This document shows, piece after piece, positions 35,478 through 60,491 of a stretch of 64,000 nt of DNA; position 1 is the first letter of the stretch, and each line of letters begins with the position of its first letter. The DNA is taken from contig DCHU01000082.1 in NCBI GenBank assembly GCA_002314915.1, forward strand, positions 3,896-67,895, in the 5' to 3' direction. The translations under genes were made by a program, and so were the position numbers. The DNA is from Bacillales bacterium UBA1744. Lineage in GTDB: Bacteria > Bacillota_I > Bacilli_A > RFN20 > CAG-826. The notes below the pieces were generated by a model that worked only from the letters and a program-made list of their open reading frames with translations, ran no database searches and had not been told where the DNA came from.

Positions 35478-35498
35478 TTAAACAAATATAATAGTTAA

Positions 35499-35578
35499 GC
35501 CATCGCGAGAAGTTGTCTTCGAACCAGGTCAGGCGGGGAACCGAGCAGCCTTAAGATCAGAACTCCTGTGCGGTGGTT
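35499..35578 (+). ncRNA. ffs: Small (4.5S-type) signal recognition particle RNA
   Basis: Domain IV core CCAGGTCAGGCGGGGAACCGAGCAGCC equals the E. coli 4.5S core CCAGGUCAGGUCCGGAAGGAAGCAGCC, apart from a compensatory change in the stem under the GGAA tetraloop. Closing helix 35499-35507 / 35569-35577, followed by a T-run. Confidence 0.8.
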
Positions 35579-35602
35579 TTCTTATTGTTCTATAATAGTG
35601 GT

Positions 35603-36127: not shown

Positions 36128-39016
36128 ATGCTTGAATTAAAGTCTATAGTCAAAAACTATGAAATAGAGGGGGAAGTATACCCTGCGTTGGCGGGTATAG
36201 ACCTTGCCTTTGCTGACAAAGGCATAGTCGCGATACTCGGACCTTCCGGATGTGGTAAAACCACCCTTTTAAACATAATCGGCGGACTTGATCACTACAC
36301 CTCTGGAGACGTCATCATCGATGGCAAATCCACCACAAACTTTAAAGAAAAAGACTGGGATGCATTCCGCAACGAAAGAGTGGGGTTCGTTTTCCAGAAC
36401 TATAACCTAATTCCACACAAGAACATTCTCGCAAATGTTGCGATATCTTTAACTTTGTCAGGCATTTCGCCATCTGAAGCCAAAGAGCGTTCGCTTGCAG
36501 CACTTCATTCCGTTGGCCTTGATGGTTTGGAAAAGAAGAGACCGAACCAGTTGTCCGGCGGCCAGATGCAAAGGGTTGCCCTAGCAAGAGCAATTGTAAA
36601 TAACCCAAGCATCATTCTCGCTGATGAACCTACCGGCGCACTTGACTCAAACACATCTATCCAGGTCATGGACCTTTTCAAGAACATTGCAAGCGATAGG
36701 CTTGTTATCTTGGTTACACACAACAAAGAATTGGCTGAAGCATATGCTGACCGAATCATTCAAATGAAAGACGGAGTCATCATCGCAGATTCAAATCCAA
36801 TCCAGGCTAACCACGCTGTTACTGGTGTAGAGAAGAACAAGAAAACATCCATGAGCTTAGGAACTGCCATCGCCTCATCGTGGTCAAACATCAAAACAAA
36901 GAAAGGCCGCACAATCTTAACCGCCGTTGCCTCTAGTTTTGGCGTTGTTGGTGTCGCTTTGGTTCTCGCCGTTTCAAACGGATTCTCAGGCTTTGTTTCA
37001 AGAGTTGAGAAATCCTTGGCATCAACGGCCCCAATCTCAATTTCGAAAACACAATACAGTTACTTTGATAACAGCACAAAGATAAACGAGGTGGAGTTCC
37101 CTGATACGGACAAGCTCTACCCATTAGACACATCAAGCGACTCTTATGTCAGCCACACAAATCACTTCACACAGGAATATGTATCTAAAGTTTTAGATCC
37201 GCTCGTTGAAGAGGGTTTAGCAAGCAATGTAATGATTAACAGAAGCGGCCTTTTGTTCAACGTCTTAACTGAAAAGGGTATACATCCAGGAAGCGGAGAG
37301 TATAAAGAAATAAACCAATATTCCGGCGCTGGATCGTATGGCGGAGGCATCGCATCGGTCACCGGACTCCCTGCAACAATCTTCCATGAACTTTATATGC
37401 CAGAGGCTCCGATGAGGGAAACGTACGACTTAATCTACGGAAAATACCCACAAAACCCAGATGAGATTGTTTTAATCACGGATAGTTACAACCAAATCGA
37501 ACTCAACGTTTTAAACAAACTCGGCTTCTATAGCTCAACAGACGACACCAAGAAACCGATCGATTTTGCTGATATCATCACAACCGATTCACATGAAGGA
37601 AAAACCTATAAAGCGTATCCAAACTCCACACTATATAAAGACATCGGATCGAAACAGCCTTACGCAGAATATGACTTATACCCTGAATACAAGGACGGAA
37701 CATTCCAGTTCTCTGGAACGAAGAAATACAGAGAAATGTCCATCTTCAACAGAGAATACAGCGACAGTGAAGGTCTGAAAAACATATATCAAAACGACGA
37801 CAAGTACGATGAGGTCAAACTCAAAATCGTCGGCGTTTTAAGACCGGCAAAAAACAGCTACCTTTCCTTAATGCCTGGATCAATCGGGTATCTCGAATCA
37901 CTAAAAGATATGTTCGTGGACGATTCCGAGAAAAACTGTTCAGCAATACACAAAGCCGCAACCGAGGCTTTCTACGTTCCTCTCATAAACTACGACGGAG
38001 AGGACGGCTTTGAAGCCGCCAACAAGGTGTTCAACGATATTTATCAGCAAATAGATTCTGCCACACCAGAAGAATATGCCGAGATATTGAGTGGTTCACT
38101 GGTTTCCAAGATTGCTTCAGTCTTTGACTTCAGATATTTCTTCTTGTACGGAGACCAGAATCCTGCGGATGCCGATTACTCAGGAAGCGGAACTGGTTAT
38201 CTTTATTATTCCGGATTATTTACTCTCGCTAAGAGGGTTGGAGCGGACTTCCATGAAGATCAAGTCGCCAACATGATTGAAGATCTCCTTTATGGAAAAA
38301 AGAAGGAGCAGGAAAGCGCGAAAGACGCATTACTAAACAAACTGCTCAACCCTGATTTCTATAAAGCCGGATGGGAAAACGACGGCTCAGCATACGACTT
38401 CAATGTCCTTGACCTTATCGCATATTACGAGTCATTCTCGCTAATCGACTCGGTTCTTATCTTCCCTTCAAGCCTTACCGTTAAGGATCAGATTTTCGCT
38501 AGACTCGATGCCTATAACAATGCGCAGGCCGATAAGACAACCAAGGTTTATTACTCGGATGTTATGTCTACAGTAACCGACACCGTTGGCACTGTTGTTA
38601 ACGCTTTGACCGGTGTTTTGGTTGTTTTTGCAGGCATTTCTCTCGTTGTTAGCTGCATTATGACCGCAATTATCACTTATGTTTCCGTTATAGAGAGAAC
38701 AAAAGAAATCGGCGTTTTGAGAGCGTGCGGTGCTAGAAAACGCGATGTTGGAAGGTTGTTTAGATCTGAATGTATGATGGTCGGACTTGCTTCCGGAATC
38801 ATAGGAATTGCCGTCTCGTATCTTTTGTCATGGCCAATTAATGTGATCATTAATCGCCTATATCCAACTTACAAAATTGGCGCAATCGCATCATTGAACC
38901 CGTTAGTTGCAATCGCGTTGGTTGCTTTATCGATAATCCTTGCGTTGGTAAGCGGAATTGTTCCTGCTGCCATCGCTGCAAAGAAAGACCCTGTCGTGGC
39001 ATTGAGGAGTGAGTAA
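36128..39016 (+). CDS. MacB-type fused ABC transporter (N-terminal ATPase, FtsX-family permease) with a ~545-aa extracytoplasmic domain
   Basis: 962 aa. Walker A GPSGCGKTT, LSGGQMQR, Walker B ILADEPTG. TM1 around residue 265, then a long soluble region, then three C-terminal TMs with FtsX-domain character (ERTKEIGVLRACGARKRDV). Confidence 0.85.
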   Translation: MLELKSIVKNYEIEGEVYPALAGIDLAFADKGIVAILGPSGCGKTTLLNIIGGLDHYTSGDVIIDGKSTTNFKEKDWDAFRNERVGFVFQNYNLIPHKNILANVAISLTLSGISPSEAKERSLAALHSVGLDGLEKKRPNQLSGGQMQRVALARAIVNNPSIILADEPTGALDSNTSIQVMDLFKNIASDRLVILVTHNKELAEAYADRIIQMKDGVIIADSNPIQANHAVTGVEKNKKTSMSLGTAIASSWSNIKTKKGRTILTAVASSFGVVGVALVLAVSNGFSGFVSRVEKSLASTAPISISKTQYSYFDNSTKINEVEFPDTDKLYPLDTSSDSYVSHTNHFTQEYVSKVLDPLVEEGLASNVMINRSGLLFNVLTEKGIHPGSGEYKEINQYSGAGSYGGGIASVTGLPATIFHELYMPEAPMRETYDLIYGKYPQNPDEIVLITDSYNQIELNVLNKLGFYSSTDDTKKPIDFADIITTDSHEGKTYKAYPNSTLYKDIGSKQPYAEYDLYPEYKDGTFQFSGTKKYREMSIFNREYSDSEGLKNIYQNDDKYDEVKLKIVGVLRPAKNSYLSLMPGSIGYLESLKDMFVDDSEKNCSAIHKAATEAFYVPLINYDGEDGFEAANKVFNDIYQQIDSATPEEYAEILSGSLVSKIASVFDFRYFFLYGDQNPADADYSGSGTGYLYYSGLFTLAKRVGADFHEDQVANMIEDLLYGKKKEQESAKDALLNKLLNPDFYKAGWENDGSAYDFNVLDLIAYYESFSLIDSVLIFPSSLTVKDQIFARLDAYNNAQADKTTKVYYSDVMSTVTDTVGTVVNALTGVLVVFAGISLVVSCIMTAIITYVSVIERTKEIGVLRACGARKRDVGRLFRSECMMVGLASGIIGIAVSYLLSWPINVIINRLYPTYKIGAIASLNPLVAIALVALSIILALVSGIVPAAIAAKKDPVVALRSE

Positions 39017-41499
39017 TGGCATCGAACAAGGTTGAGCTTTTGAAACAGAAAATTGCCGAGGCCGAGGTCTATGAGACCGATTTTTTGGTCGGCCTTAATG
39101 ATGAGCAAGTTCAATCTAGAATCGATGATGGGTTGGTCAACAAAAACAAAAAGACCGTCACCAAAACCACATGGCAAATACTCAAAGACAACGTTTTCAC
39201 GTTCTTCAACATCATATTCTTCTGTATATGCATAATGCTTTTGATTGCCCGTGCAAACCCCAAAGATTTCTTCTTCATTCTTCCTATCACCGGAAATATC
39301 GTCCTTGGACTCGCCGCGGATTTTAGAGCAAGAGCCTTAGTCAATAAACTGAGCCTCGTTACAAATCCAAGACAATCGGTTATGCGTAACGAAAAGGAAC
39401 TCATGTTGGCCTCTGATGAATTGGTTCTAAGCGACATAATCGTTTTAAGGGCGGGCGATCAAGTCTGCGCTGATGCGGTTATCGTTGGAGGCAAAGCCTC
39501 ATTTAACGAATCATCGATTACGGGTGAATCCGACTCAATCTCAAAAGAAGTCGGAGACGAAGTCCTTTCAGGCACTTATGTCGTCTCTGGCATCGTATAC
39601 GCGCGCGTCACAAAAATAGGCGCGGCCTCATACATTGAAGGCGTTACTGCGGCCGCAAAGAACTTCTCCAGACCACAATCGGAAATCAAAAAATCATGCT
39701 TATACGTTTTCCGCTTAACCGGAACTATCGCAATCGTCTTTGCTATAGCAATGACTCTCATATGGTTATTCAAGAGCGAAATCTCTTATGAATCATATTC
39801 GGAACATGCTGTTAGTTTCGCCGGATCCCTTGTTGCAATGATTCCTGCCGGTTTATATTTGCTTTCCTCCATCACTTTGGGTGTCGGCGTCATCAACCTC
39901 GGAAGAAAACAGGTTAACGTTCAGGAGTTGTTCTGCATCGAAACATTGGCTAGAGCGGACGTCATCTGCTTTGATAAGACCGGCACTCTCACAGACGGAA
40001 CACTCACAATTAAAGATCTCTACAACCACTCAGACATGAGCGATGACGACATAAAGATGAATATGGCGTCTCTCGTCGCCTCGACAATGGACACAAACGG
40101 AACCGCTGCCGCAATAGCTAAATCATTCGGCAAAGGAAAGAAGAAAGCGGTCGCCGTTATTCCTTTCGATTCCGCGTATAAGTATTCGGCCGCAACATTC
40201 GAAGACGGCGAGACATATGTTCTTGGCGCATATGGTTTTGTCGATGCAAAGCCAACGCCGGAAATCGACAAGATGATTAAGAAAATGGCCGCTGCAGGAG
40301 ATAGAGCTGTGTGTTTCTATCGCTGCCAAAAACCTCTCAAAAACGATAAATTACAAGCAAAATGCGAACTTATTGCGGTTTTGGATATCGCTGACCACAT
40401 CAAAGAAGACGCCAGCGACAACATCAATTGGTTCATCTCAAACGGCGTTGATGTAAAGGTCATCAGTGGTGACGATCCAATCACCGTCGCAAAGATTGCA
40501 AATCAGGTCGGTGTTCCTAATGCCGCCAACTACATTTCAATGGATGGCGTCGCTCTAGAAGATATTCCGGAACTTGTTAATAATCACTCTGTCTTTGGCC
40601 GTGTTAGCCCAACCCAGAAAGAAGCGATTGTTTCCGCTCTTCAGGCCCAGGGTCATAAAGTCGCAATGACCGGTGATGGTGTTAATGACATCCTCGCTCT
40701 CAAGAAAGCCGACTGTTCAATCTGTATGGCTTCAGGATCATCTGCAGCTAGAAACTCCGCTCACATGATCGTTATGGATAACACATTCTCACACTTACCT
40801 GACGTTGTTGCGGAAGGAAGGCGTGTCGTTAATAACCTCCAGAGAACGTCTTCTTTGTTCCTGTCTAAAACTGTATTCGCCATTGTTCTCAGTTTGGTCT
40901 TCATGATTACAAGCATCTGTGGAGGCCCGTCATATCCATTCTCAACATCCAACATGATTCTTTGGGAATCAATAACAATCGGATGCGGAGGATTCTTGCT
41001 TGCACTAGAGCCGTCAAAAGAACCAATTACAGGAACGTTCTTGGGCAACGTCTTAAAGACTGCGTTGGTTTCTGGAACAGTCCAGACTTTGTCTGTTCTT
41101 GTCATTTACCTCTCTTACCTCATTGCGCCTGATTTCTATATGGGTTCAAGAACCGTTGTTTCCACGTGTGCAGTTTATGCGTTCTCATTCTTGTCGTATT
41201 TGACCTTGTTCAAGAACTGTTTGAAGCTGAACAAATACAGAACAACCGTCTTCGTCGTTTTGGCCGTAGTCGGAATTGCGTTTGTCACCCTCGACTACTA
41301 CTTCTTCGGATTCTTATCTAACTTGGTCCGAGGGCCAGGAGGTCGAGCCGGCGGTTCCGAGTACCTAAGTATCTATCATTGGATTGTGATAATTTCCGAC
41401 ATTGCAGTTATGTCGATTATATATATCTTGGTCAGCATGTATGTTGATCGAGCCTACATAAACAGATTTAAGAAAGAGGATTCAAAAAATGAAGGTTAA
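39016..41499 (+). CDS. P-type (E1-E2) cation-transporting ATPase
   Basis: 827 aa. TGES, phosphorylation motif DKTGTLT, hinge MTGDGVNDILALKKAD. Its start shares 1 nt with the preceding TAA stop. Confidence 0.9.
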   Translation: MASNKVELLKQKIAEAEVYETDFLVGLNDEQVQSRIDDGLVNKNKKTVTKTTWQILKDNVFTFFNIIFFCICIMLLIARANPKDFFFILPITGNIVLGLAADFRARALVNKLSLVTNPRQSVMRNEKELMLASDELVLSDIIVLRAGDQVCADAVIVGGKASFNESSITGESDSISKEVGDEVLSGTYVVSGIVYARVTKIGAASYIEGVTAAAKNFSRPQSEIKKSCLYVFRLTGTIAIVFAIAMTLIWLFKSEISYESYSEHAVSFAGSLVAMIPAGLYLLSSITLGVGVINLGRKQVNVQELFCIETLARADVICFDKTGTLTDGTLTIKDLYNHSDMSDDDIKMNMASLVASTMDTNGTAAAIAKSFGKGKKKAVAVIPFDSAYKYSAATFEDGETYVLGAYGFVDAKPTPEIDKMIKKMAAAGDRAVCFYRCQKPLKNDKLQAKCELIAVLDIADHIKEDASDNINWFISNGVDVKVISGDDPITVAKIANQVGVPNAANYISMDGVALEDIPELVNNHSVFGRVSPTQKEAIVSALQAQGHKVAMTGDGVNDILALKKADCSICMASGSSAARNSAHMIVMDNTFSHLPDVVAEGRRVVNNLQRTSSLFLSKTVFAIVLSLVFMITSICGGPSYPFSTSNMILWESITIGCGGFLLALEPSKEPITGTFLGNVLKTALVSGTVQTLSVLVIYLSYLIAPDFYMGSRTVVSTCAVYAFSFLSYLTLFKNCLKLNKYRTTVFVVLAVVGIAFVTLDYYFFGFLSNLVRGPGGRAGGSEYLSIYHWIVIISDIAVMSIIYILVSMYVDRAYINRFKKEDSKNEG

Positions 41500-52240: not shown

Positions 52241-53605
52241 ATGAACAACCCAAAAGACACTGAAATCATCAAGACAATTTGCTTAGACCTTTCTTATGAA
52301 GGTAAAGGCGTGTGCCGTGATGGGGATAGAGTCGTGTTCGTCACAGGAATGTTTCCTGGAGACGAAGGCGATGTCGAAATCCTCTATAAGAAGAACGGTG
52401 TCTTTTTTGGTCGTATAAAAAAGTTAGATAAACTATCAGAGAATAGAATCAAGTCTGTGTGCAAAGTGTGCACCGCTTGCGGTGGATGCTCATTCCAGGC
52501 ATATAGATACGATGCTCAGTTAGAGTACAAGCAAAAACTTGTCTCTGAGCAGTTCCGCAAAGTCGGACACATGGTTGTGGATGTACTTCCAACCCTTGGA
52601 ATGAAAGATCCGTATCACTACAGAAACAAGGTCCAGGTTCCTTTCGGTTGGGATCAGTGGCACCAGAACATCATTTATGGTTTCTATAAAGAAGGAACTC
52701 ACTACATCGTTAAAAATGATGATTGCTCAATCGAAGATAAACTTGGAAACAAGATAGTCTCTGAATTGTGCAAGATCATGAACGAACTTCAAATCGACCC
52801 ATATGTTGAAAAGACGGGCGAAGGATATATTAGACACGCGTTGGTAAGAACGAGCAAACATTTCGACCAGAACATGTTGGTCATCGTTTCCAAATCACCA
52901 TATTTCCCAAGAAAAGATAAACTCGTTGAACTTGTAAGAGAACGACTCCCAGAAGTCACGACGATTGTAGAAAACATCAACCCGGATAAGACCAACGTAA
53001 TCCTCGGAGATAAAGAGAAGATTATGTGGGGTAGAGGATATATCGAAGATATTCTTTGCGGAGTCAAATTCAGAATCTCTGCGAAGAGCTTCTATCAGAC
53101 AAACCCTGTCATGACTGAGATTCTTTATCAAACAGCGATGGATTTCGCCTCAATCGATCCAAATGAGGTTGTTTTCGACGCCTATTCAGGAATCGGAACG
53201 ATCGGATTGATCGCCGCGACCAAAGGCGCGAAGAACGTAACGGCAGTTGAGGTTGTATCTGAAGCTGTTAGAGACGCTGAATATAATGCGAAATCAAACA
53301 ACATCGAAAACTACACCGCGATATGTGGTGATGCGACAGAATACCTAGTCGAACAAGCCAAACTTGGCGTCAAATTCGACACCATATTCATGGATCCTCC
53401 TCGCAAAGGATCTACACCCGAGTTCATTAATGCGGTTAAGACCACTAAGCCTAATAAGATTGTGTATGTGTCATGCAACCCAAGCACGCTTGCAAGAGAC
53501 TGTGCTTTGCTTGTTGGTATGTATGAAATTAAAAAGGTCCAACCAGTGGATCTTTTCCCGCAAACCCCTCACGTTGAGTGTATCACGTTGCTCTGTCGAA
53601 AATAG
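52241..53605 (+). CDS. rlmD: 23S rRNA (uracil-C5)-methyltransferase, RlmD/RumA family
   Basis: 454 aa. TRAM-like N-terminus, Fe-S cluster cysteines CKVCTACGGCSFQ, SAM fold DAYSGIGTIG, catalytic region YVSCNP. Confidence 0.9.
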   Translation: MNNPKDTEIIKTICLDLSYEGKGVCRDGDRVVFVTGMFPGDEGDVEILYKKNGVFFGRIKKLDKLSENRIKSVCKVCTACGGCSFQAYRYDAQLEYKQKLVSEQFRKVGHMVVDVLPTLGMKDPYHYRNKVQVPFGWDQWHQNIIYGFYKEGTHYIVKNDDCSIEDKLGNKIVSELCKIMNELQIDPYVEKTGEGYIRHALVRTSKHFDQNMLVIVSKSPYFPRKDKLVELVRERLPEVTTIVENINPDKTNVILGDKEKIMWGRGYIEDILCGVKFRISAKSFYQTNPVMTEILYQTAMDFASIDPNEVVFDAYSGIGTIGLIAATKGAKNVTAVEVVSEAVRDAEYNAKSNNIENYTAICGDATEYLVEQAKLGVKFDTIFMDPPRKGSTPEFINAVKTTKPNKIVYVSCNPSTLARDCALLVGMYEIKKVQPVDLFPQTPHVECITLLCRK

Positions 53606-53829
53606 GGTGAAAACGCCAAAAAAAGCATAAAATCAAGGGTTTTGGTCAATTTGGGTTGATCAAGACTCTTTTTTCTTCTACTCTCGTTTTCGTTAAATAC
53701 CCCGAAAATCTTCGGTTTTATAGTATGAGGAAACATATCAATATTTGTACAGATACATCGCATTTATGGGAACGTAGCGGCAGATAGGATCACATTCAGT
53801 ATAATTTAATGAAAAACGATAAATAATTA

Positions 53830-53859
53830 TTGAAAAACGACTTATGATTATGATATAAA
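53830..53859 (+). promoter_or_regulatory. Candidate promoter of the DUF2975 cassette
   Basis: TTGAAA (53830-53835), 18-nt spacer, TG-extended TATAAA (53854-53859). Confidence 0.35.
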
Positions 53860-53887
53860 TTAATTGAAGTATTATAGGAGAAACATT

Positions 53888-54337
53888 ATGAAAATCGAAA
53901 AATATCTGTTTCCGTTTATCTCCGTCGTCTCAATCGCAATAGGCGTATTTTTCTGCGTTTGGTATTATCCATCAGCGCTGATTGACAGCGATCATACGAT
54001 CTACGGAACGATGCTTGCCCTGCATATTGCGCTGTCTATGCCTTGCTTCTGGATTGTCTATGTTTTTACGGATTTGTGGATCAGGTATTTGAATGGAGGA
54101 GCATTCACTCAGAGGACGTGTGCATTATTGAAGGCTTCATCCGTTGTTATGCTTGCTGATAGCGTGATGTTCGTCGCGTTGACATCTGTCGATATTGCCC
54201 TTTCGTGCATTTCAAACGTAATCGGGAATGTGGCGATATTGCTTTTCGGCCTAATGGTGTCTGCTGCGCTATTCGTCTTGAGAAATCACGTCCGCGCGGT
54301 AATCAAGGATAAGGAAGACTTGGAGGGCACGGTATGA
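53888..54337 (+). CDS. DUF2975-family membrane protein
   Basis: 149 aa from ATG 53888 (AGGAGA RBS). Four TMs and a C-terminal KEDLEGTV tail. It is paired with a YozG-type HTH, as this family usually is. Confidence 0.7.
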   Translation: MKIEKYLFPFISVVSIAIGVFFCVWYYPSALIDSDHTIYGTMLALHIALSMPCFWIVYVFTDLWIRYLNGGAFTQRTCALLKASSVVMLADSVMFVALTSVDIALSCISNVIGNVAILLFGLMVSAALFVLRNHVRAVIKDKEDLEGTV

Positions 54338-54552
54338 TTGTTGTGAATGTTGACGTGATGCTCGCAAAGAAGAAGATGAGCGTCACGGAGTTGTCGGAGA
54401 GGCTTGGCATCACAATACAGAATGTCTCGCTTTTGAAAAACGGAAAACTCAAGGCATTGAGGATATCAACCCTGGATAAGCTTTGCGAGATATTCGATTG
54501 TCAACCAAGCGATTTGCTCGAATACAGAAAGGAAGAAGAAAATGAAAAATAA
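54334..54552 (+). CDS. XRE/YozG-type helix-turn-helix transcriptional regulator
   Basis: 72 aa. VNVDVMLAKKKMSVTELSERLGITIQNVSLLKNGKLKALRISTLDKLCEIFDCQPSDLLEY. ATGA overlap with the DUF2975 gene. Confidence 0.85.
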   Translation: MIVVNVDVMLAKKKMSVTELSERLGITIQNVSLLKNGKLKALRISTLDKLCEIFDCQPSDLLEYRKEEENEK

Positions 54553-55051
54553 AGTACTACTAAAATTTGTTGGCGTTTCATTGTTGTTTTCGGCAATGTT
54601 GCTGCCTATTACATCTTGCTCATTAATAATTGGCGGAATCAAAGGCCTTACAGATAGCATTCAGGATAAATGGAATAGCAACCATGGAATAAACTTTTTC
54701 AGCAATGACTGGGAAAGGCTTTACAATACGGGCCTCGAATACGAATATGCCGCTAGACTTTACGTATTTTCTACAAATGGAACAAGCGTTAAGGAACAGT
54801 ACTTGGTTACAGAAAAGAATTCTGATTTTGAGGAAAGGTGGGATCATTGGATTAACTATATAGAAAAGCAACAAACTATAAGTGATGAGTACGATTTTTC
54901 ATTCGATGATGATTATCAATGGATGTGGTACGTTCTTAAAAAAAGTTATATGGATGATCCGGAATTTGTTAAAAAAATTTACTATTCGAGTTTACTTGCT
55001 GCATATGTTCCGTCTACAGAACGTATTTATGCAATACAAATAATAAGTTAA
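54542..55051 (+). CDS. Lipoprotein of unknown function
   Basis: 169 aa. Signal peptide with lipobox LLPITSC. Aromatic- and acidic-rich mature part. Overlaps the HTH gene by 11 nt. Confidence 0.6.
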   Translation: MKNKVLLKFVGVSLLFSAMLLPITSCSLIIGGIKGLTDSIQDKWNSNHGINFFSNDWERLYNTGLEYEYAARLYVFSTNGTSVKEQYLVTEKNSDFEERWDHWINYIEKQQTISDEYDFSFDDDYQWMWYVLKKSYMDDPEFVKKIYYSSLLAAYVPSTERIYAIQIIS

Positions 55052-55074
55052 TTCTAAGAAAGGAAATAGAGGAT

Positions 55075-56778
55075 ATGAAGAAGTATTTGGGTTTGTTGTT
55101 GTGTGCATCAATTTGCTTCAGCGGTAATGCAGCAAAGAAAAGCGAATCTGGAGAAACAAAAATCGTCACTAAAGAATTAAGAATAGCAAACAGGATTGGG
55201 AACAGTACTATTGATTCGTTGAATAATCTGTTGGACGAAAGATTAAGCGAACTTATCTCTAAAACAGAAGGAATGATAGCAATGTTGCAGAATGGAGAGG
55301 TTAGTGAAAGCGCGTCTAGGATTGGCGGGGTAAGCACACACGATGTTCTTCCTGCTTTAACTTTTCCAACCGCGACATCATTGGTTATTGATGCAATTGC
55401 TGCTTTTTCTGCAGCTGGTTATAAACTGTCTGCCGAGCTTTTGACCGTTGCTTTTGGAAACACGGATCCGGACAGGACATATGTACCGGTGTATGGTGGA
55501 AGGATGATAACTTCCTCACAAGCAAGGGCAAAAGCCTACGATTCATTGGTGAGTGACGAATTGTTCTTCGGATACGATTTGTCTAATACAACCAACGAGA
55601 ACGATCTTTCTTTAGCGATTCATCGTGCTCCGTTTACCAAGCCGTATTCGACAAGTAAAGTAGTTAGCATTGCTGATACATACGATTTTGGTGGATTTGA
55701 GGGTCAAGATAACGGGTTCTTGAATTTCGCAAACGGAACATTTTCCATCATCCAAGATTTAGGTGTCATTACTCCATATACGGTTAACATTTCGGTAGAT
55801 TTCTCAAAAGATTTGGATATATCTGTCGAATCATATTCATCTAGCACTTATTCAATCAACGTAACGAACAACACGTCGCAAAAACAATTAGTCGTTTACA
55901 ACAAAAGAATGTGTAATCTCGAAGACGCTAGAAACTGGACGAACCTGACGGACATCGATTACATGTATTTAAACAGCGGTGAAAGCAGGAGCATTAACGT
56001 TTCGGAAAGAGGGACTGCGACCTCGGTTGCCTTCAGCTATGTTACGGGCTCGACTAGATACATCTCCTCAGCATTCCAACTAAATGTTGGCGGCCGACTT
56101 TCAAGAGAACAAACGTCCGTAAATCACAATTCTTACTATAACCTTGACATTATAGGTAAAGACGGCGATGAATGGATCTTGAGATACAAGAATCTCACCT
56201 CTTCAAGCGTCCCGTTAGAATATAACTCCAGGATGTGTTATCTCTCCGACGCGGAGAATTGGACCAACTTGAGGAACCTGGGCTCCTTCGTCGTAAGCCC
56301 TTATTCTGACGGCATCTTCAGAATAGAGGAGTATGGCACCGCTGGGGCGATCGCCGTCAGATACAAAATGGGCTCATACTACTATTACGTTTACGCGAAC
56401 AACCTGTCTTCCGACACAACAATGTCCGCAAACAGAAGAACGGAGTATTATTACGAATACCTCTCGTTGGACAATAATGGCAAATCCGGTGGAAAGTGGA
56501 AAATAGTTATCCACAACCCAAAGTCTTATGCAATTACAGCCTACTATAATTCAAAAATGTGTTTCCAATCTGATGCGGTGAATTGGACGAATCTAAATGA
56601 CGTCTTATCTGTTACTATCCCAGCCAACGGCTCCAAAGAGGTCAGTATCTCAACCAACTGGACGGCTGGCTTCATCACAACGTGTTACATCGACAACAAC
56701 CACAGGGTTATAACGTGCGCGAACAGCCTATCAACATCAGGTGCGATCGCGCCTAGAAACAACGTAGTGGATTTGTAA
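55075..56778 (+). CDS. Secreted protein: helical N-terminal segment, unknown ~170-aa domain, and three 108-aa repeats
   Basis: 567 aa. N-terminal signal sequence MKKYLGLLLCASICFSGNA, then a heptad-like helical region (residues about 30-75). The motif YN(K/S)(R/K)MCxxxDAxNWTNL recurs at residues 275, 383 and 491. Confidence 0.6.
   Translation: MKKYLGLLLCASICFSGNAAKKSESGETKIVTKELRIANRIGNSTIDSLNNLLDERLSELISKTEGMIAMLQNGEVSESASRIGGVSTHDVLPALTFPTATSLVIDAIAAFSAAGYKLSAELLTVAFGNTDPDRTYVPVYGGRMITSSQARAKAYDSLVSDELFFGYDLSNTTNENDLSLAIHRAPFTKPYSTSKVVSIADTYDFGGFEGQDNGFLNFANGTFSIIQDLGVITPYTVNISVDFSKDLDISVESYSSSTYSINVTNNTSQKQLVVYNKRMCNLEDARNWTNLTDIDYMYLNSGESRSINVSERGTATSVAFSYVTGSTRYISSAFQLNVGGRLSREQTSVNHNSYYNLDIIGKDGDEWILRYKNLTSSSVPLEYNSRMCYLSDAENWTNLRNLGSFVVSPYSDGIFRIEEYGTAGAIAVRYKMGSYYYYVYANNLSSDTTMSANRRTEYYYEYLSLDNNGKSGGKWKIVIHNPKSYAITAYYNSKMCFQSDAVNWTNLNDVLSVTIPANGSKEVSISTNWTAGFITTCYIDNNHRVITCANSLSTSGAIAPRNNVVDL
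55831..56775 (+). repeat. Intragenic tandem protein repeats (3 x about 108 aa, diverged at DNA level)
   Basis: Motif Tyr codons start at 55897, 56221 and 56545, exactly 324 nt apart. Shared positions include Y-N-x-[KR]-M-C, D-A-x-N-W-T-N-L and a later G-T-A. Confidence 0.75.
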
Positions 56779-56779
56779 T

Positions 56780-58831
56780 ATGATTTCGTTACACAATCTA
56801 AGCAAGACTTATTCAGAAGGGAAGCCAAATCAGGTCAAAGCGCTTAAACGCATCGATCTCGAGCTGCCGGATTCTGGCCTTGTGTCGATAACGGGAAAAT
56901 CAGGATGCGGGAAGACGACGTTACTCAACCTTTTGGGAATGATTGACGTTCCGACTTCCGGAACCATAACCATATCCGGAACCGACGTAACAACCCTCAA
57001 ATCCGGCGAATACGACAAGTTCAGGGCAAAAGAGATTGGATATATCTTTCAGGACTACAACCTGCTTGAGGGTTTCTCGATACTGGACAACATCTCCATC
57101 GGGTGCGAAATAACCGGCGAGAAAATCGAAAACGGAAGAGTCAGGGAAATCCTGGAGAAACTAGAGCTGCCCGCCGACGATAATTTCTTGAAGAAGAAGG
57201 CGAGGGAGCTGTCTGGCGGCCAAAAGCAAAGGGTTGCAATTGCCAGGGCTCTTTTGAGGAATTCCGGCGTCATCCTATGTGACGAGCCGACTGGTGCGCT
57301 CGACGAGGAGAACGCGAGGAACGTTTTCTCTGTCTTGAGGAAGGTTTCCAAAAACACACTCGTAATTTGTGTGACCCACGAAAAAGACTATGCGTTAGAG
57401 TATTCCGACCGCGTGATCGAGATGTCCAACGGCGAAATTGTGGGTGATACCGCGATTAATGAGGACCGCGGAAAAACTCAACCAGACAAAATAAAAGGCA
57501 GGAAAGGCGGCCTACGCCTTGTTAGCGCGACGAAGATTGCACTTGGAACGCTATTCAGAAGCAAAACCAGAATGGTGGTAGCGTGCATAACCACGCTTTT
57601 TGCGATGCTTTTTTCGGCCATGTCCCTGAGCCTCAACCTTTACGATTCGGCGAAATTCGAGGCGAACAGCATATTGCAGAACGGCCTCCGCACGGGATTG
57701 CTCGTTGACCGAAGCATATACTCCGACGACAGCGATTCGATAATGGATGGGTTCAACTCCAATCAGATCGAGCTGGTCGACGAATTCAGCGGAGGAATGG
57801 CGTGCAAAGCCCACCTGACTTCCTTATCGATTACGATTTTCGAGCAAACCGGGCTGTCTGTTTTGTCCCACACAGAAGCGTACTATTCGGATTATTACGC
57901 AGCTTTCGGCAATGCTTGGCTGGTCGAGGTCGACGATTCGAAGATGGACTACCTTGGGATATCATTTGACGAGAGGATAGAAGATGTTGCCACGGCGCAC
58001 CTTCCGGTCAGCGATGGCGAAATCGGCATAACGGATTTCTGGGCCGATTACATTGTTGAAAACGGAGTGAAAGGAGCCAAGTCGATCGCCGACGTTATCG
58101 GGATGGAGATAGACGGGAAGACGATTACCACCGTTCTTTCCACCGAAGTCCCGAAGGACTTTTTTGAGGTGTCCTATAAAAAAAGGGGGGAGACTTACTC
58201 TACCTACCTCAAGTCCGGTTTCTATAACCCGCTCAACTGCTTCTTCGTTCCTAAAGGTTCTCTGGAATACGACAGTACGTATAACAACATGCCTAACGCA
58301 TACGCCATAAACGTGAGTAACGTCAAGGCGCTAAGCAAATTGATAAAAGAAGGAACTTCATTCTCCGATGACCTAACCGTGAAATACACGATTAGGTTTA
58401 TGACTGAATTCTCGAGCTTTTCGAGCATGGTTGAAAACGTGTCCTTTGTCTTGAATGATGTAGGAAGAATCGTGATACCGATCATAATAGCGTTCTCCGC
58501 CCTGATCGTCGCCAATTTCGCGTTGGGCAACATTGACTCCATGCGCAGAGAACTAGGCCTTCTCAAGGTCCTTGGGTGCAACGTTTACAATATGTGTTCC
58601 ATCGGTTTCGTTCAGTCGATGACCACATTGGTTGGGATAGGCGTGCTTTCGACGGTCGGAATATCAGCTATAGTTGCATCGTTCAATGCATATATGGGTT
58701 TGTCGATTGTGAGCTTTGAGCCAATCGTATTGTTACTTTTGATAGCTATGGTAGTAACTTTCTCCTTCGTCTCGACGATATTCATATTCCTGAAGTACAG
58801 AAAGAAAGACGCCGTTTCTATGTTGATATAA
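56780..58831 (+). CDS. MacB/FtsEX-type fused ABC protein (N-terminal ATPase, FtsX-family permease, ~280-aa external domain)
   Basis: 683 aa. Walker A GKSGCGKTT, LSGGQKQR, Walker B ILCDEPTG. TM1 around residue 260, three C-terminal TMs. Its ATG is 1 nt after the stop of the repeat-protein gene. Confidence 0.85.
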   Translation: MISLHNLSKTYSEGKPNQVKALKRIDLELPDSGLVSITGKSGCGKTTLLNLLGMIDVPTSGTITISGTDVTTLKSGEYDKFRAKEIGYIFQDYNLLEGFSILDNISIGCEITGEKIENGRVREILEKLELPADDNFLKKKARELSGGQKQRVAIARALLRNSGVILCDEPTGALDEENARNVFSVLRKVSKNTLVICVTHEKDYALEYSDRVIEMSNGEIVGDTAINEDRGKTQPDKIKGRKGGLRLVSATKIALGTLFRSKTRMVVACITTLFAMLFSAMSLSLNLYDSAKFEANSILQNGLRTGLLVDRSIYSDDSDSIMDGFNSNQIELVDEFSGGMACKAHLTSLSITIFEQTGLSVLSHTEAYYSDYYAAFGNAWLVEVDDSKMDYLGISFDERIEDVATAHLPVSDGEIGITDFWADYIVENGVKGAKSIADVIGMEIDGKTITTVLSTEVPKDFFEVSYKKRGETYSTYLKSGFYNPLNCFFVPKGSLEYDSTYNNMPNAYAINVSNVKALSKLIKEGTSFSDDLTVKYTIRFMTEFSSFSSMVENVSFVLNDVGRIVIPIIIAFSALIVANFALGNIDSMRRELGLLKVLGCNVYNMCSIGFVQSMTTLVGIGVLSTVGISAIVASFNAYMGLSIVSFEPIVLLLLIAMVVTFSFVSTIFIFLKYRKKDAVSMLI

Positions 58832-59125
58832 TGTAGGAACAGAGGGGACAATACACACTAGTAGAGGTTGTATGCACTATCCAGTAGACCTGTGCAAAAT
58901 GAGTTCCAGTTGACATGTTCCTCGCATATGGTGCCTCGTATGTATGGACATGTTCCTTGCATGCAACCGATACACGTTGAAACTGTCGTTGAGCTGGGTT
59001 TGAAATAGGGACGATATACAAGGAACCGCCCGATAAAAAAAACGAAGACAAAATCTTCTTTTCATCAACCATAAAATAGTGTACTTTCCAATTGGTTGTA
59101 TCAGAATAGATTCACAGGTACTCCA

Positions 59126-59812
59126 ATGTCTGAAAACAATAGAATTAACAAAGGGTTATTGATTGCGTTTGTGGTCGTTCAACTATTGTTGACGATGCTT
59201 ATTTTCGTCGCCGACTTTAACGGATTATTCGAAACCGTAGCAATTAAGTATTCAGGCATAGTGTTGTGTTTTATCGTGTCTCTGTTTGCCATCAAAGACA
59301 AGCGATCAAGATGGGTAATTCTCGGTTTGGCCGGAACCTTGGTGGCGGATCTTTTCCTGCTTGTTTTAGATAAGTATTACTTGGTTGGTGTCATCGCATT
59401 TATCTTCGTTCAGATAATGTATTTTATATACATCAGACCAAAAAGGTGGAAGGTGTCTTTGCTTATTAGAATGGTGTTGTTTATTGTTGCGGTTCTCGTG
59501 GTTTTATTCGGATTCAATGTTAATGATTTAACTGTGTTTTGCTCACTCTTTTACTTTGTAAACCTTGTTATGAACATGGTTGATGCGTGGATTGAGTTCA
59601 AGAATGGATTTTTGGTGTTTGCGTTGGGCTTAACGCTATTCATCGGATGCGATGTATCGGTTGGGTTCCACAACATATCCTCATACATCACTTACTCTTC
59701 CCCGTTCATCGATAAAGTGATAGATTTTAGCCAATTTGGAATGTGGCTATTCTATCTCCCGTCCCAAACATTGATTGCACTATCCCCGTTCATTGGTAAA
59801 AAACATGAGTAA
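59126..59812 (+). CDS. YhhN-family (lysoplasmalogenase-like) membrane protein
   Basis: 228 aa from ATG 59126. About 8 TMs, with acidic residues embedded in helices (LVADLFLL, FIGCDVSVG) as in YhhN/TMEM86 proteins. Confidence 0.5.
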   Translation: MSENNRINKGLLIAFVVVQLLLTMLIFVADFNGLFETVAIKYSGIVLCFIVSLFAIKDKRSRWVILGLAGTLVADLFLLVLDKYYLVGVIAFIFVQIMYFIYIRPKRWKVSLLIRMVLFIVAVLVVLFGFNVNDLTVFCSLFYFVNLVMNMVDAWIEFKNGFLVFALGLTLFIGCDVSVGFHNISSYITYSSPFIDKVIDFSQFGMWLFYLPSQTLIALSPFIGKKHE

Positions 59813-60491
59813 AAAACAGAAGGCATTACTAATTGCAGTATCAATCATCTACACCGCAAGTTTGGTGCTTTTTGCCATCTCATTCTCAATCAACCTACCT
59901 ATCTATTTCAGACCATTTTATTACATGCTCATAAAACCTATGCATATGGTTGAGGATCTTAATAACTGGACCGGCTGTAGTTACACAACTAAAGATGTTA
60001 TTGAGGCATACAATGAGGTTTTGAATTTCTGCTGTTTCAACACCAAGTTTGGAACTGGAAAACTCGCCTGGTCAGAAGAGGGCAAAAGCCACTTCCAAGA
60101 CTGCCAAGGTTTGTTTTTGTTAGATACCGTTGTGATGTTTGTTTCCGCCGCATTTATCGGTGCTACTCACACACTCAAGAAGCTGAACATCGTTACGCCT
60201 TACAAACGCTCTCATCTGATTGCTGGGGTAACAGCGATCGCCTTGCCGTCGGTAGTGGGGGTTCTCGCCTCATTAGATTTCGATAAAGCATTTGAGGTAT
60301 TCCATCACATTTTCTTCCCCGGAAAAGAGAACTGGATATTTGATCAGAATACAGACCAAATCATTTTGGTTATGCCTGAAAATTTCTTCATGGCCTGCGC
60401 AATATTTATTGGGGTGGGAATAGTTCTGATATCAGTTTATTACATATTGAGGGGCTCTGGAGTTTTCAAGAAACTGAAATTCAAACGATAA
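59805..60491 (+). CDS. TIGR01906-like integral membrane protein
   Basis: 228 aa from ATG 59805. N-terminal TM followed by LPIYFRPFYY..., with C-terminal TMs. Overlaps the YhhN-family gene by 8 nt. Confidence 0.5.
   Translation: MSKKQKALLIAVSIIYTASLVLFAISFSINLPIYFRPFYYMLIKPMHMVEDLNNWTGCSYTTKDVIEAYNEVLNFCCFNTKFGTGKLAWSEEGKSHFQDCQGLFLLDTVVMFVSAAFIGATHTLKKLNIVTPYKRSHLIAGVTAIALPSVVGVLASLDFDKAFEVFHHIFFPGKENWIFDQNTDQIILVMPENFFMACAIFIGVGIVLISVYYILRGSGVFKKLKFKR

Follow-up and report, generated by a model that had tools for sequence, protein, structure and literature searches.

A composite five-gene cassette in the 3' end of rlmD brings together a secreted NW-repeat protein, a lipoprotein and a MacB/FtsX-type ABC protein

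We analysed a 64,000-nucleotide (nt) stretch of contig DCHU01000082.1 from Bacillales bacterium UBA1744 (hereafter the window), in which five genes on the + strand, g1 to g5 (53888-58831 in the open reading frame (ORF) map; Table 1), lie between rlmD and a YhhN-family gene. This cassette is a composite accessory element in the 3' end of rlmD, made up of three gene pairs that are conserved separately in gut Firmicutes: the head domain of the secreted protein g4 with the lipoprotein g3 (module A), the NW repeat domains of g4 with the fused ATP-binding cassette (ABC) protein g5 (module B), and the regulator pair g1/g2 (module C). An earlier note on this DNA had described the five genes as one unit coupling a secreted repeat protein and a lipoprotein to a MacB/FtsEX-type ABC protein, led by a DUF2975/helix-turn-helix (HTH) pair; some of these links hold and others are redrawn below. 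The explanation that we favour, tentatively and as something just short of probable, is that g4 is a Sec-secreted antibacterial effector, g3 its lipoprotein inhibitor and g5 an ABC protein that handles the NW domains, so that the producer would have two layers of self-protection; toxicity and protein contacts are among the things that we infer.

Two independent sets of loci were used. The genome set comes from a scan at one genome per species and holds 58 NW loci from uncultured Clostridia and Bacilli, with hosts that include Christensenellales, Borkfalkia, Coproplasma, Enterosoma, Onthovivens and Erysipelotrichaceae. The metagenome set was seeded solely on the head motif D[LC]YYAIHxF and holds 33 usable loci.

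The NW domain is a portable module

The three exact-period repeats noticed earlier in g4 are genuine, with a period of 108 amino acids (aa; 324 nt), NWTNL at residues 287, 395 and 503, and [RK]MC at residues 278, 386 and 494. The 108-aa unit is called the NW domain here, from its motif YNxKMCxxxDAxNWxxL. In an AlphaFold2 model of g4 based on 11 homologues (pLDDT 81, pTM 0.70), the N-terminus is disordered apart from a single helix of 27 residues; a compact alpha/beta domain follows at about residues 97-245, and then come three beta-sandwiches. The N-terminal segment had been read as coiled-coil-like, but the model has only one low-confidence helix there (residues 46-72) between disordered stretches, and the segment is not PcsB-like. 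The domain of some 170 aa that had been suspected behind it does exist, although it is smaller than thought: an alpha/beta domain, modelled with confidence (pLDDT 88.8), that spans about 150 aa. g4 matches nothing in Pfam or NCBIfam, in agreement with the earlier failure to see a known hydrolase domain (CHAP, NlpC/P60 or LytM) by eye, and neither the full-length sequence nor the head profile matches a PDB sequence. Foldseek with the whole chain returned generic tandem immunoglobulin/macroglobulin-like beta-sandwich matches alone, at low TM-score. The NW domain likewise has no Pfam or NCBIfam model.

A search with full-length g4 found 14 clusters among 5.8 billion proteins. A hidden Markov model (HMM) of a single repeat found one to four NW copies per protein in the genome set. 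NW domains are preceded by heads of the C92, trypsin-like, S8 (subtilase), C39-like or alpha/beta-hydrolase (lipase) type, or by none; a single-NW-domain profile run against the big database was uninformative (230 candidates, one match). Two proteins, P0010 and P0011, carry a subtilase head followed by three NW repeats, and the 978-aa P0014 has an alpha/beta-hydrolase head, three NW repeats and a Hint-like tail. Since the repeats stand behind so many different heads, NW is a portable module. The C-terminus of P0014, judged by eye, has a Hint/intein-type look with an extension (CIAEGTLITLADGS...); a Hint-type C-terminal architecture of this kind is typical of polymorphic toxins.

The N-terminal helical segment of g4 (55210-55290) is 22 residues shorter than that of its 83%-identical relative P0002 (NELLNDYYVMLEQNP...), so that this region is variable even among close relatives. 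Two g4-type paralogues, P0006 and P0008, were also seen on one contig (L005, L001-L004; ERZ28756069 contig_4438, 1,995,323 bp), each with different small neighbours. The 161- and 163-aa neighbours of P0008 were considered as relatives of g3 and ruled out, being unrelated, polytopic membrane proteins.

NW domains are linked to an FtsX-type ABC protein with a distinct outer domain

The ATPase half of g5 is clear (Pfam ABC_tran, 3.2e-33; Walker A GKSGCGKT, LSGGQ and ILCDEP all present). Hydropathy places a first transmembrane (TM) helix, TM1, at residues 265-283, followed by a 280-aa outer domain and three C-terminal TM helices within residues 564-667. g5 thereby has the intact ATPase motifs of type VII ABC proteins and, by hydropathy only, their four-TM layout with a large domain between TM1 and TM2. 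The earlier assignment of g5 to the MacB/FtsEX-type fused ABC proteins is right as to the fusion and the MacB-like topology, but does not extend to the curated FtsX, LolCE and MacB models. The Pfam FtsX match of g5 is weak, its 19.4 bits lying under the cutoff of 25.5, which its homologous partners pass with 37-66 bits; neither g5 nor nine relatives match MacB_PCD in Pfam, and the permease half matches no NCBIfam model, its relatives reaching at most 35 bits against cutoffs of 225-255. The permease halves also have no relative by sequence in the PDB. Against the FtsE equivalog model g5 scores 172 bits, below the cutoff of 265. The nucleotide-binding domain (NBD) aligns to MacB over residues 2-282, and its second-best NCBIfam match is the lactococcin-972-type bacteriocin ABC protein TIGR03608 (181.9 bits, 1e-53, cutoff 254.85). 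The outer domain has no Pfam, NCBIfam or PDB match.

The association of this type of protein with NW is strong. In the gene maps of all genome-set loci, proteins with one or two C-terminal NW domains have a g5-like gene downstream at -13 to +99 nt, and their heads are of the Peptidase_C92, trypsin-like, Peptidase_S8 or C39-like type or are missing. The gene after the NW gene is of FtsX type in 24 of the 56 species-level loci (16 fused NBD-FtsX genes and 8 permease-like genes) versus 8 of 537 other genes (Fisher p=8e-21; 2e-12 for the fused NBD-FtsX genes alone), and headless NW proteins also adjoin an ABC gene (L029/L030). A single phmmer pass with the g5 outer domain matched at least 15 NW-adjacent partners at E of about 1e-8, permease-only ones included, and three jackhmmer rounds recovered nearly all NW-adjacent FtsX-type partners; the window's other ABC-FtsX gene was not matched. 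The linkage is independent of the head and is thus a property of the NW domain and the g5-type outer domain. Repeat protein and ABC gene also occur together outside this genome, as the idea in the earlier note required, in L009 (all five genes, 83%) and L010 (43%).

Three NW-adjacent partners of 631-645 aa (L063:8348-10282, L066:8333-10270 and L057:8329-10224) have a g5-type outer domain and TM helices, but their N-terminal ~270 residues are unrecognisable as an ABC ATPase and may be a degenerate NBD. The polytopic membrane proteins beside other NW proteins were considered as a single family and this was ruled out; they have no Pfam match, CPBP/Abi included. The window's second fused ABC-FtsX gene (36128-39016; 962 aa, FtsX 66 bits) is followed directly by an 827-aa ORF (39016-41499), has no NW protein upstream and encodes an outer domain that is not of g5 type. 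Just upstream of it lies a bacterial small signal recognition particle RNA (35494-35589; RF00169, 50.9 bits), which is the sole Rfam match in the window.

The head domain pairs with a small membrane-tethered partner

Across its family, the head of g4 keeps E121, N129, Y136, P138, D177 and D201-x-Y203-D204 invariant and H183 near-invariant. The polar residues among these (E121, N129, Y136, D177, D201, Y203 and D204, together with H183) look like an active site in the alignment. A search with the head profile (alignment A2) against 1.84 billion representatives returned 539 clusters, 336 of them at E<=1e-10. Most members are unnamed secreted proteins of about 250 aa in which the head follows a signal peptide and a helical segment, and which have no repeats; some carry other C-terminal modules (PPC-like or LRR_5). 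The family has no Pfam match and no PDB sequence match.

g3 fits its earlier description as a 169-aa lipoprotein without a recognisable domain: it has a lipobox (LPITSC) and a single N-terminal hydrophobic segment, and it matches nothing in Pfam or NCBIfam. An alignment of g3-like proteins shows an EYxWK motif and a conserved C-terminal strand. In the metagenome set a g3-like gene is the immediate neighbour of the head gene, on either side, in about 20 of the 33 usable loci, and part of the remaining loci have an unrelated small lipoprotein or single-TM gene beside the head; none of the 33 has NW or FtsX. In the genome set, one or two g3-like genes lie beside g4-type proteins (L013, L014, L015 and L019). 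The coupling of the lipoprotein to the ABC protein that had been proposed for the cassette is not supported, because in both sets the lipoprotein tracks the head domain instead.

Taken together with the NW loci, this is the pattern of effector/immunity systems, with variable heads on a constant module and a small adjacent gene that is often duplicated. Variable heads, duplicated small tethered partners and patchiness fit such a system better than housekeeping control of an autolysin.

The DUF2975/HTH pair follows the head

The lead pair of the cassette had been recognised as DUF2975 and a YozG-type HTH, and this stands. The HTH_26 match of g2 is solid (Pfam, 2.3e-22). g1 scores 23.8 bits on DUF2975, under the Pfam cutoff of 27, but it is homologous to the syntenic proteins of L013 (50.2 bits) and L071, which are clear members of that family. 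g1 and g2 thus correspond to a YoaS-YozG pair, that is, a DUF2975 membrane protein gene followed by a Cro/C1 HTH_26 gene.

A DUF2975 gene and an HTH gene are found upstream of head genes in four independent contexts (the window with L009, L013, L071/72 and L088); in the last three, the DUF2975 gene is a clear one and overlaps the HTH_26 gene. L013 has the pair, two g3-like genes and a g4-like gene without an ABC gene, and L071/72 has the pair and a head with a PPC-like tail, without g3 and without an ABC gene; the HTH proteins encoded upstream of the head genes in L071 and L013 are 61-65% identical to g2. The pair therefore tracks the head domain and not the ABC protein. A preprint describes YoaS-YozG as a conserved operon, probably under its own control, whose upstream operator region is AT-rich (bioRxiv 10.64898/2026.09.15.751765). 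The cassette shares with it both gene families, the overlap of the two genes and a repeat-bearing, AT-rich stretch upstream, and differs in that in the window, L013, L071 and L088 the pair lies directly upstream of a head-domain gene, an arrangement of which we found no description. No common operator motif was found upstream of the four pairs.

The cassette is an insertion with a composite origin

From its long flanks the cassette had been suspected of being an accessory insertion between rlmD and the YhhN gene. This is supported by a second, displaced rlmD end that follows g5. The genuine end (left repeat) and the displaced, diverged copy of the last 12 codons of rlmD (right repeat) are identical at 24 of 38 positions, ungapped and of equal coding length, a similarity reached by 3 of 20000 spacer shuffles. 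Such a displaced end is what remains after an element has entered the 3' end of a gene and brought a new end with it.

Positions 1-5465 of contig L009, compared with 53570-58980 of the window, open with the right flank of the cassette, the first 68 nt being 92.6% identical to 58913-58980, and then cross a CAYGTTGA core into an rlmD-type left repeat. The GACATGTTCCTYGCAT segment, present twice in the window at a spacing of 35 nt shortly before the right repeat, forms both the start and the end of contig L009, and the contig ends overlap by exactly 22 nt. L009 is a cyclic path; it may stem from an excised circle, from a tandem duplication or from a cycle in the assembly graph.

All five genes were found only in the window (with identical copies in L114, L116 and L117) and in L009 (83% protein identity). 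L010 (43%) has modules A and B only, namely the repeat protein, the small gene and the ABC gene, and A and B are combined only in these three places. The GC content at third codon positions (GC3) averages 0.44 over the window but changes strongly along the cassette, with values of 0.32 (g3), 0.48 (g4) and 0.61 (g5); this shift suggests that the modules have different origins and is consistent with a mosaic assembly.

A possible effector with two layers of self-protection

In the explanation that we tentatively favour, g1 and g2 would regulate the operon through the AT-rich stretch before it that holds the promoter and the repeats, g4 would be exported by Sec, and its head would probably be an enzyme that attacks the cell envelope from outside. 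g3, tethered to the outer face of the producer's membrane, would neutralise the head, making the two an effector/immunity pair. The three NW domains may be the ligand of the 280-aa outer domain of g5, which as a MacB/FtsX-type mechanotransmitter would move that domain at the cost of ATP hydrolysis inside the cell. The likely outcome would be that the NW-bearing protein is dislodged or released from the surface of the producer, amounting to self-protection or release that does not depend on the head; g5 might also act in the other direction, by activation. Such a division between head-specific protection (g3) and module-specific handling (g5) would account for the indifference of the ABC protein to the head, for the duplication and divergence among the small partners, and for the patchy, mobile-looking character of the system.

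Several observations weigh against this explanation. The head falls into no known family of toxins or enzymes (best Foldseek E=0.13; hhalign against colicin M, ColM, 1.3%), and the C92, trypsin-like and S8 heads of sister loci could equally be autolysins or nutritional proteases. To our knowledge, ABC-mediated protection against a secreted protein of about 60 kDa has no direct precedent. In the genome set none of the 10 g4-type proteins with a head and three NW domains has an ABC neighbour, and P0004, P0006, P0008 and P0012 likewise lie in contexts without one, so that an ABC protein is not required for every NW protein. Roughly half of the NW loci are followed by a different kind of polytopic membrane protein or by nothing that could be recognised. 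The cassette encodes no recombinase (integrase or transposase), and an exact look-up of RlmD and YhhN returned cassette-bearing or junction-broken contigs only, with no cassette-free rlmD-YhhN junction.

The most serious alternative, which we consider unlikely, is an arrangement like FtsEX with PcsB or CwlO, in which g5 docks g4 and ATP hydrolysis switches the head on for remodelling of the cell's own wall, with g3 as a co-factor or brake (cf. SweC/SweD and IseA). Here too NW would touch the outer domain, but the phenotypes to be expected would concern the wall or division and not antagonism. FtsEX-type complexes are mechanotransmitters that activate coiled-coil hydrolases (PMC6355983, PMC6705773, PMC11627006). 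The cassette resembles FtsEX with PcsB, CwlO, RipC or EnvC in combining a secreted protein with an FtsX-fold membrane protein that has an outer domain and intact ATPase motifs, its NW-to-ABC coupling is tight whatever the head, and head-family members have an N-terminal helical segment, as FtsEX clients do. Peptidase_C92, found among the sister heads, is a permuted papain-like amidase family according to Pfam. We take that family to be grouped with the NlpC/P60 enzymes. The logic borrowed from FtsEX in the earlier note, an extracellular hydrolase controlled by an FtsX-type ABC protein, remains plausible through the NW-ABC link and the C92 heads, whereas coupling by a coiled coil does not, as the link runs through the beta-sandwich repeats and g4 has a short, low-confidence helix instead of a long coiled coil. 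Further differences set the cassette apart from FtsEX: g5 is a fusion without an FtsX, FtsE or LolCE equivalog match, its 280-aa outer domain is unrelated in sequence, and g4 has no CHAP, NlpC/P60 or LytM domain. Most head proteins and most triple-repeat proteins lack a dedicated ABC protein, and headless NW proteins adjoin one all the same. FtsEX is universal, while the cassette is accessory and patchy, and its rarity (14 full-length matches in 5.8 billion proteins), paralogues, duplicated partners and insertion are atypical of housekeeping wall growth.

A second proposal, distinctly unlikely in our estimate, would refine rather than exclude the effector/immunity explanation by making the head a distant ColM-like phosphoesterase of lipid II (undecaprenyl-PP-MurNAc), with g3 in the role of Cmi. 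Nine of the 12 top Foldseek PDB matches of the head are ColM-family bacteriocins (PaeM, syringacin M, pectocins M1 and M2, and ColM), but the matches are weak (E 0.13-1.7, TM-score 0.17-0.32; the best has E 0.13 and 0.32) and, being mutually homologous, count as one. One strand of the head closes with an invariant D-x-Y-D-[FY] and leads into a loop, a helix and another strand, and ColM has DKYDF there (verified in the sequence); however, the His-Arg of the ColM signature (DxYDx5HR) has no conserved counterpart. A membrane-tethered small partner would suit an enzyme working at the outer face of the membrane, and membrane-tethered immunity proteins against extracytoplasmic toxins are known (Cmi, TipC). 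The cassette is thus like ColM/Cmi and TelC/TipC, whose toxins degrade lipid II, in its small immunity-like tethered protein, its DxYD motif and its weak fold matches, and unlike them in that sequence and profiles give no support (hhalign aligned A2 and the ColM catalytic domain in a different region, and ten members show no Pfam Colicin_M signal) and in that g4 is a Gram-positive, Sec-secreted protein with beta-sandwich repeats. A ColM-like fold suggested by the model is therefore a weak lead. Foldseek of the head against BFVD returned uncharacterised phage proteins alone, and a match to BtpeA/BtpiA (9jdi) was set aside.

The idea that NW merely anchors exoenzymes to a cognate membrane protein (ABC or other polytopic) for nutrition or host interaction, with g3 as chaperone or anchor and no antagonism, has in its favour that the heads are mainly proteases or lipases, that some integral membrane protein nearly always follows NW proteins, that many hosts are reduced gut Bacilli or Clostridia and that g4 shows no evident sortase signal, but it is improbable, as it leaves the frequent choice of an ATPase-driven partner, the strict head/g3 pairing with duplicated partners and the headless NW proteins unexplained.

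What appears to be new is the coupling of a type VII ABC protein to secreted proteins through a new adaptor domain, together with an uncharacterised effector/lipoprotein pair. The head, the g3-like lipoproteins and NW are three families without a Pfam or NCBIfam model, and the g5 outer domain is a fourth unannotated piece. They provide two rules for human- and animal-gut Firmicutes: a head pairs with a small membrane-tethered partner, and NW pairs with a MacB/FtsX-type protein that bears a g5-type outer domain. The cases of mechanotransmission demonstrated so far are FtsEX (with coiled-coil hydrolases), LolCDE and MacB; should the ABC protein act on a secreted protein by way of a portable beta-sandwich adaptor, the concept would extend to modular client recognition. 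Should the head prove to be a toxin, uncultured gut anaerobes would possess a large family of antibacterial proteins that depend on Sec, and the cassette in the window would be a rare natural construct that holds an effector, both candidate layers of protection and a regulator together. The boldest generalisation, which we regard as doubtful, is that NW is a plug-in ligand of an unrecognised MacB/FtsX-type branch, defined by the g5-type outer domain, that couples many Sec-secreted hydrolases of gut Firmicutes to ATP-driven control or removal; that the head and the lipoprotein form a new, widespread Sec-dependent Gram-positive toxin/immunity family; and that the 5.4-kb cassette moves without an integrase between rlmD 3'-end repeats.

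Comparison with other ABC-linked systems

The cassette lies between FtsEX-client systems and clusters of a bacteriocin with its immunity genes, and it belongs to none of FtsEX, MacB proper, Lcn972 and ColM. g5 resembles MacB (MacAB-TolC) and YknXYZ-like pumps in its fused NBD-FtsX organisation, four TM helices and large TM1-TM2 loop. MacB systems handle peptides and toxins from the outer face. g5 differs in lacking MacB_PCD and in having a dedicated Sec-secreted partner, and none of the five cassette genes encodes a MacA-type (membrane-fusion) adaptor.

The lactococcin 972 (Lcn972) cluster is similar in that the gene for a Sec-dependent, secreted beta-sandwich protein directly precedes an FtsX-like ABC system, and the g5 NBD scores 182 bits on the corresponding model, TIGR03608, though under its cutoff. 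NW has no Lcn972 sequence match, however, and is a module attached to enzymes rather than a 66-aa peptide; TIGR01654 (NCBIfam) was not matched by the g5-type membrane parts except at E=0.38 in L010. Lcn972 binds lipid II (PMC8538875). The combination of a lipoprotein and an ABC protein encoded with a secreted antimicrobial also recalls the lantibiotic LanI and LanFEG proteins, although LanFEG is of ABC-2 type and without homology, and the candidate antimicrobial here is a 60-kDa multidomain protein. Dual immunity by lipoprotein and ABC protein is known from lantibiotics (NisI with NisFEG).

Cassette layout and flanks

The features of the cassette are collected in Table 1. The gene junctions are as first described, with an ATGA overlap between g1 and g2, an 11-nt overlap between g2 and g3, a 23-nt gap between g3 and g4, and a 1-nt gap between g4 and g5, and the long non-coding flanks (53606-53887 and 58832-59125) are real spacers.

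Table 1. Features of the cassette and its boundaries (positions in the window)
Feature	Position	Strand	Basis
Left direct repeat, the real rlmD 3' end (HVECITLLCRK-stop, then GG)	53570..53607	+	Comparison with right repeat
Tandem 21-nt repeats (TGAAAAACGA core, repeat family D4), overlapping promoter-like TTGAAA-18-TATAAA (53830-53859)	53806..53859	+	Repeat search, sequence reading
g1, 4-TM DUF2975 (YoaS-like) membrane protein, 149 aa	53888..54337	+	Sub-cutoff Pfam match, four TM segments, homology to L013/L071 proteins
g2, Cro/C1 HTH_26 (YozG-like) regulator, 72 aa	54334..54552	+	Pfam HTH_26
g3, 169-aa lipoprotein, small (immunity-like) partner of head	54542..55051	+	Lipobox LPITSC, adjacency to head genes
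g4, 567-aa Sec-secreted protein: signal peptide, helix, head, three NW domains	55075..56778	+	Sequence, AlphaFold2 model
g4 head, residues 94-248, new alpha/beta domain	55354..55818	+	Alignment, model, profile search
Three NW beta-sandwich domains, residues 250-343, 358-451 and 466-559, with the NW motif	55822..56751	+	Repeat and HMM analysis, AlphaFold2 model
g5, 683-aa fused NBD and FtsX-type permease, MacB-like topology, module B partner of NW	56780..58831	+	Pfam, motifs, hydropathy
g5 extracytoplasmic (outer) domain, residues 284-563, family-specific	57629..58468	+	phmmer/jackhmmer against NW-adjacent partners
Pair of GACATGTTCCTYGCAT copies at a spacing of 35 nt, shortly before right repeat	58912..58962	+	Repeat family D16
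Right direct repeat, displaced and diverged rlmD 3' end, last 12 codons (HVETVVELGLK-stop, then GG)	58973..59010	+	Comparison with left repeat

The upstream spacer contains terminator-like hairpins of rlmD and the promoter-like element listed in Table 1. The region of tandem 21-nt repeats that overlaps this element is kept in L009 and is, from its sequence, a candidate operator and promoter of the cassette; scans for promoters and terminators gave counts at or below the shuffled expectation.

Directly downstream of the cassette, a YhhN-family gene overlaps a gene for Lit, the lipoprotein intramolecular transacylase (59126-60491); this neighbour of a lipoprotein-encoding insertion probably has no link to the cassette. 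On the other side, an assembly break in SRR5323859 (L115 and L117) falls exactly between rlmD and g1, where one contig stops 192 nt past rlmD and the other begins at g1.

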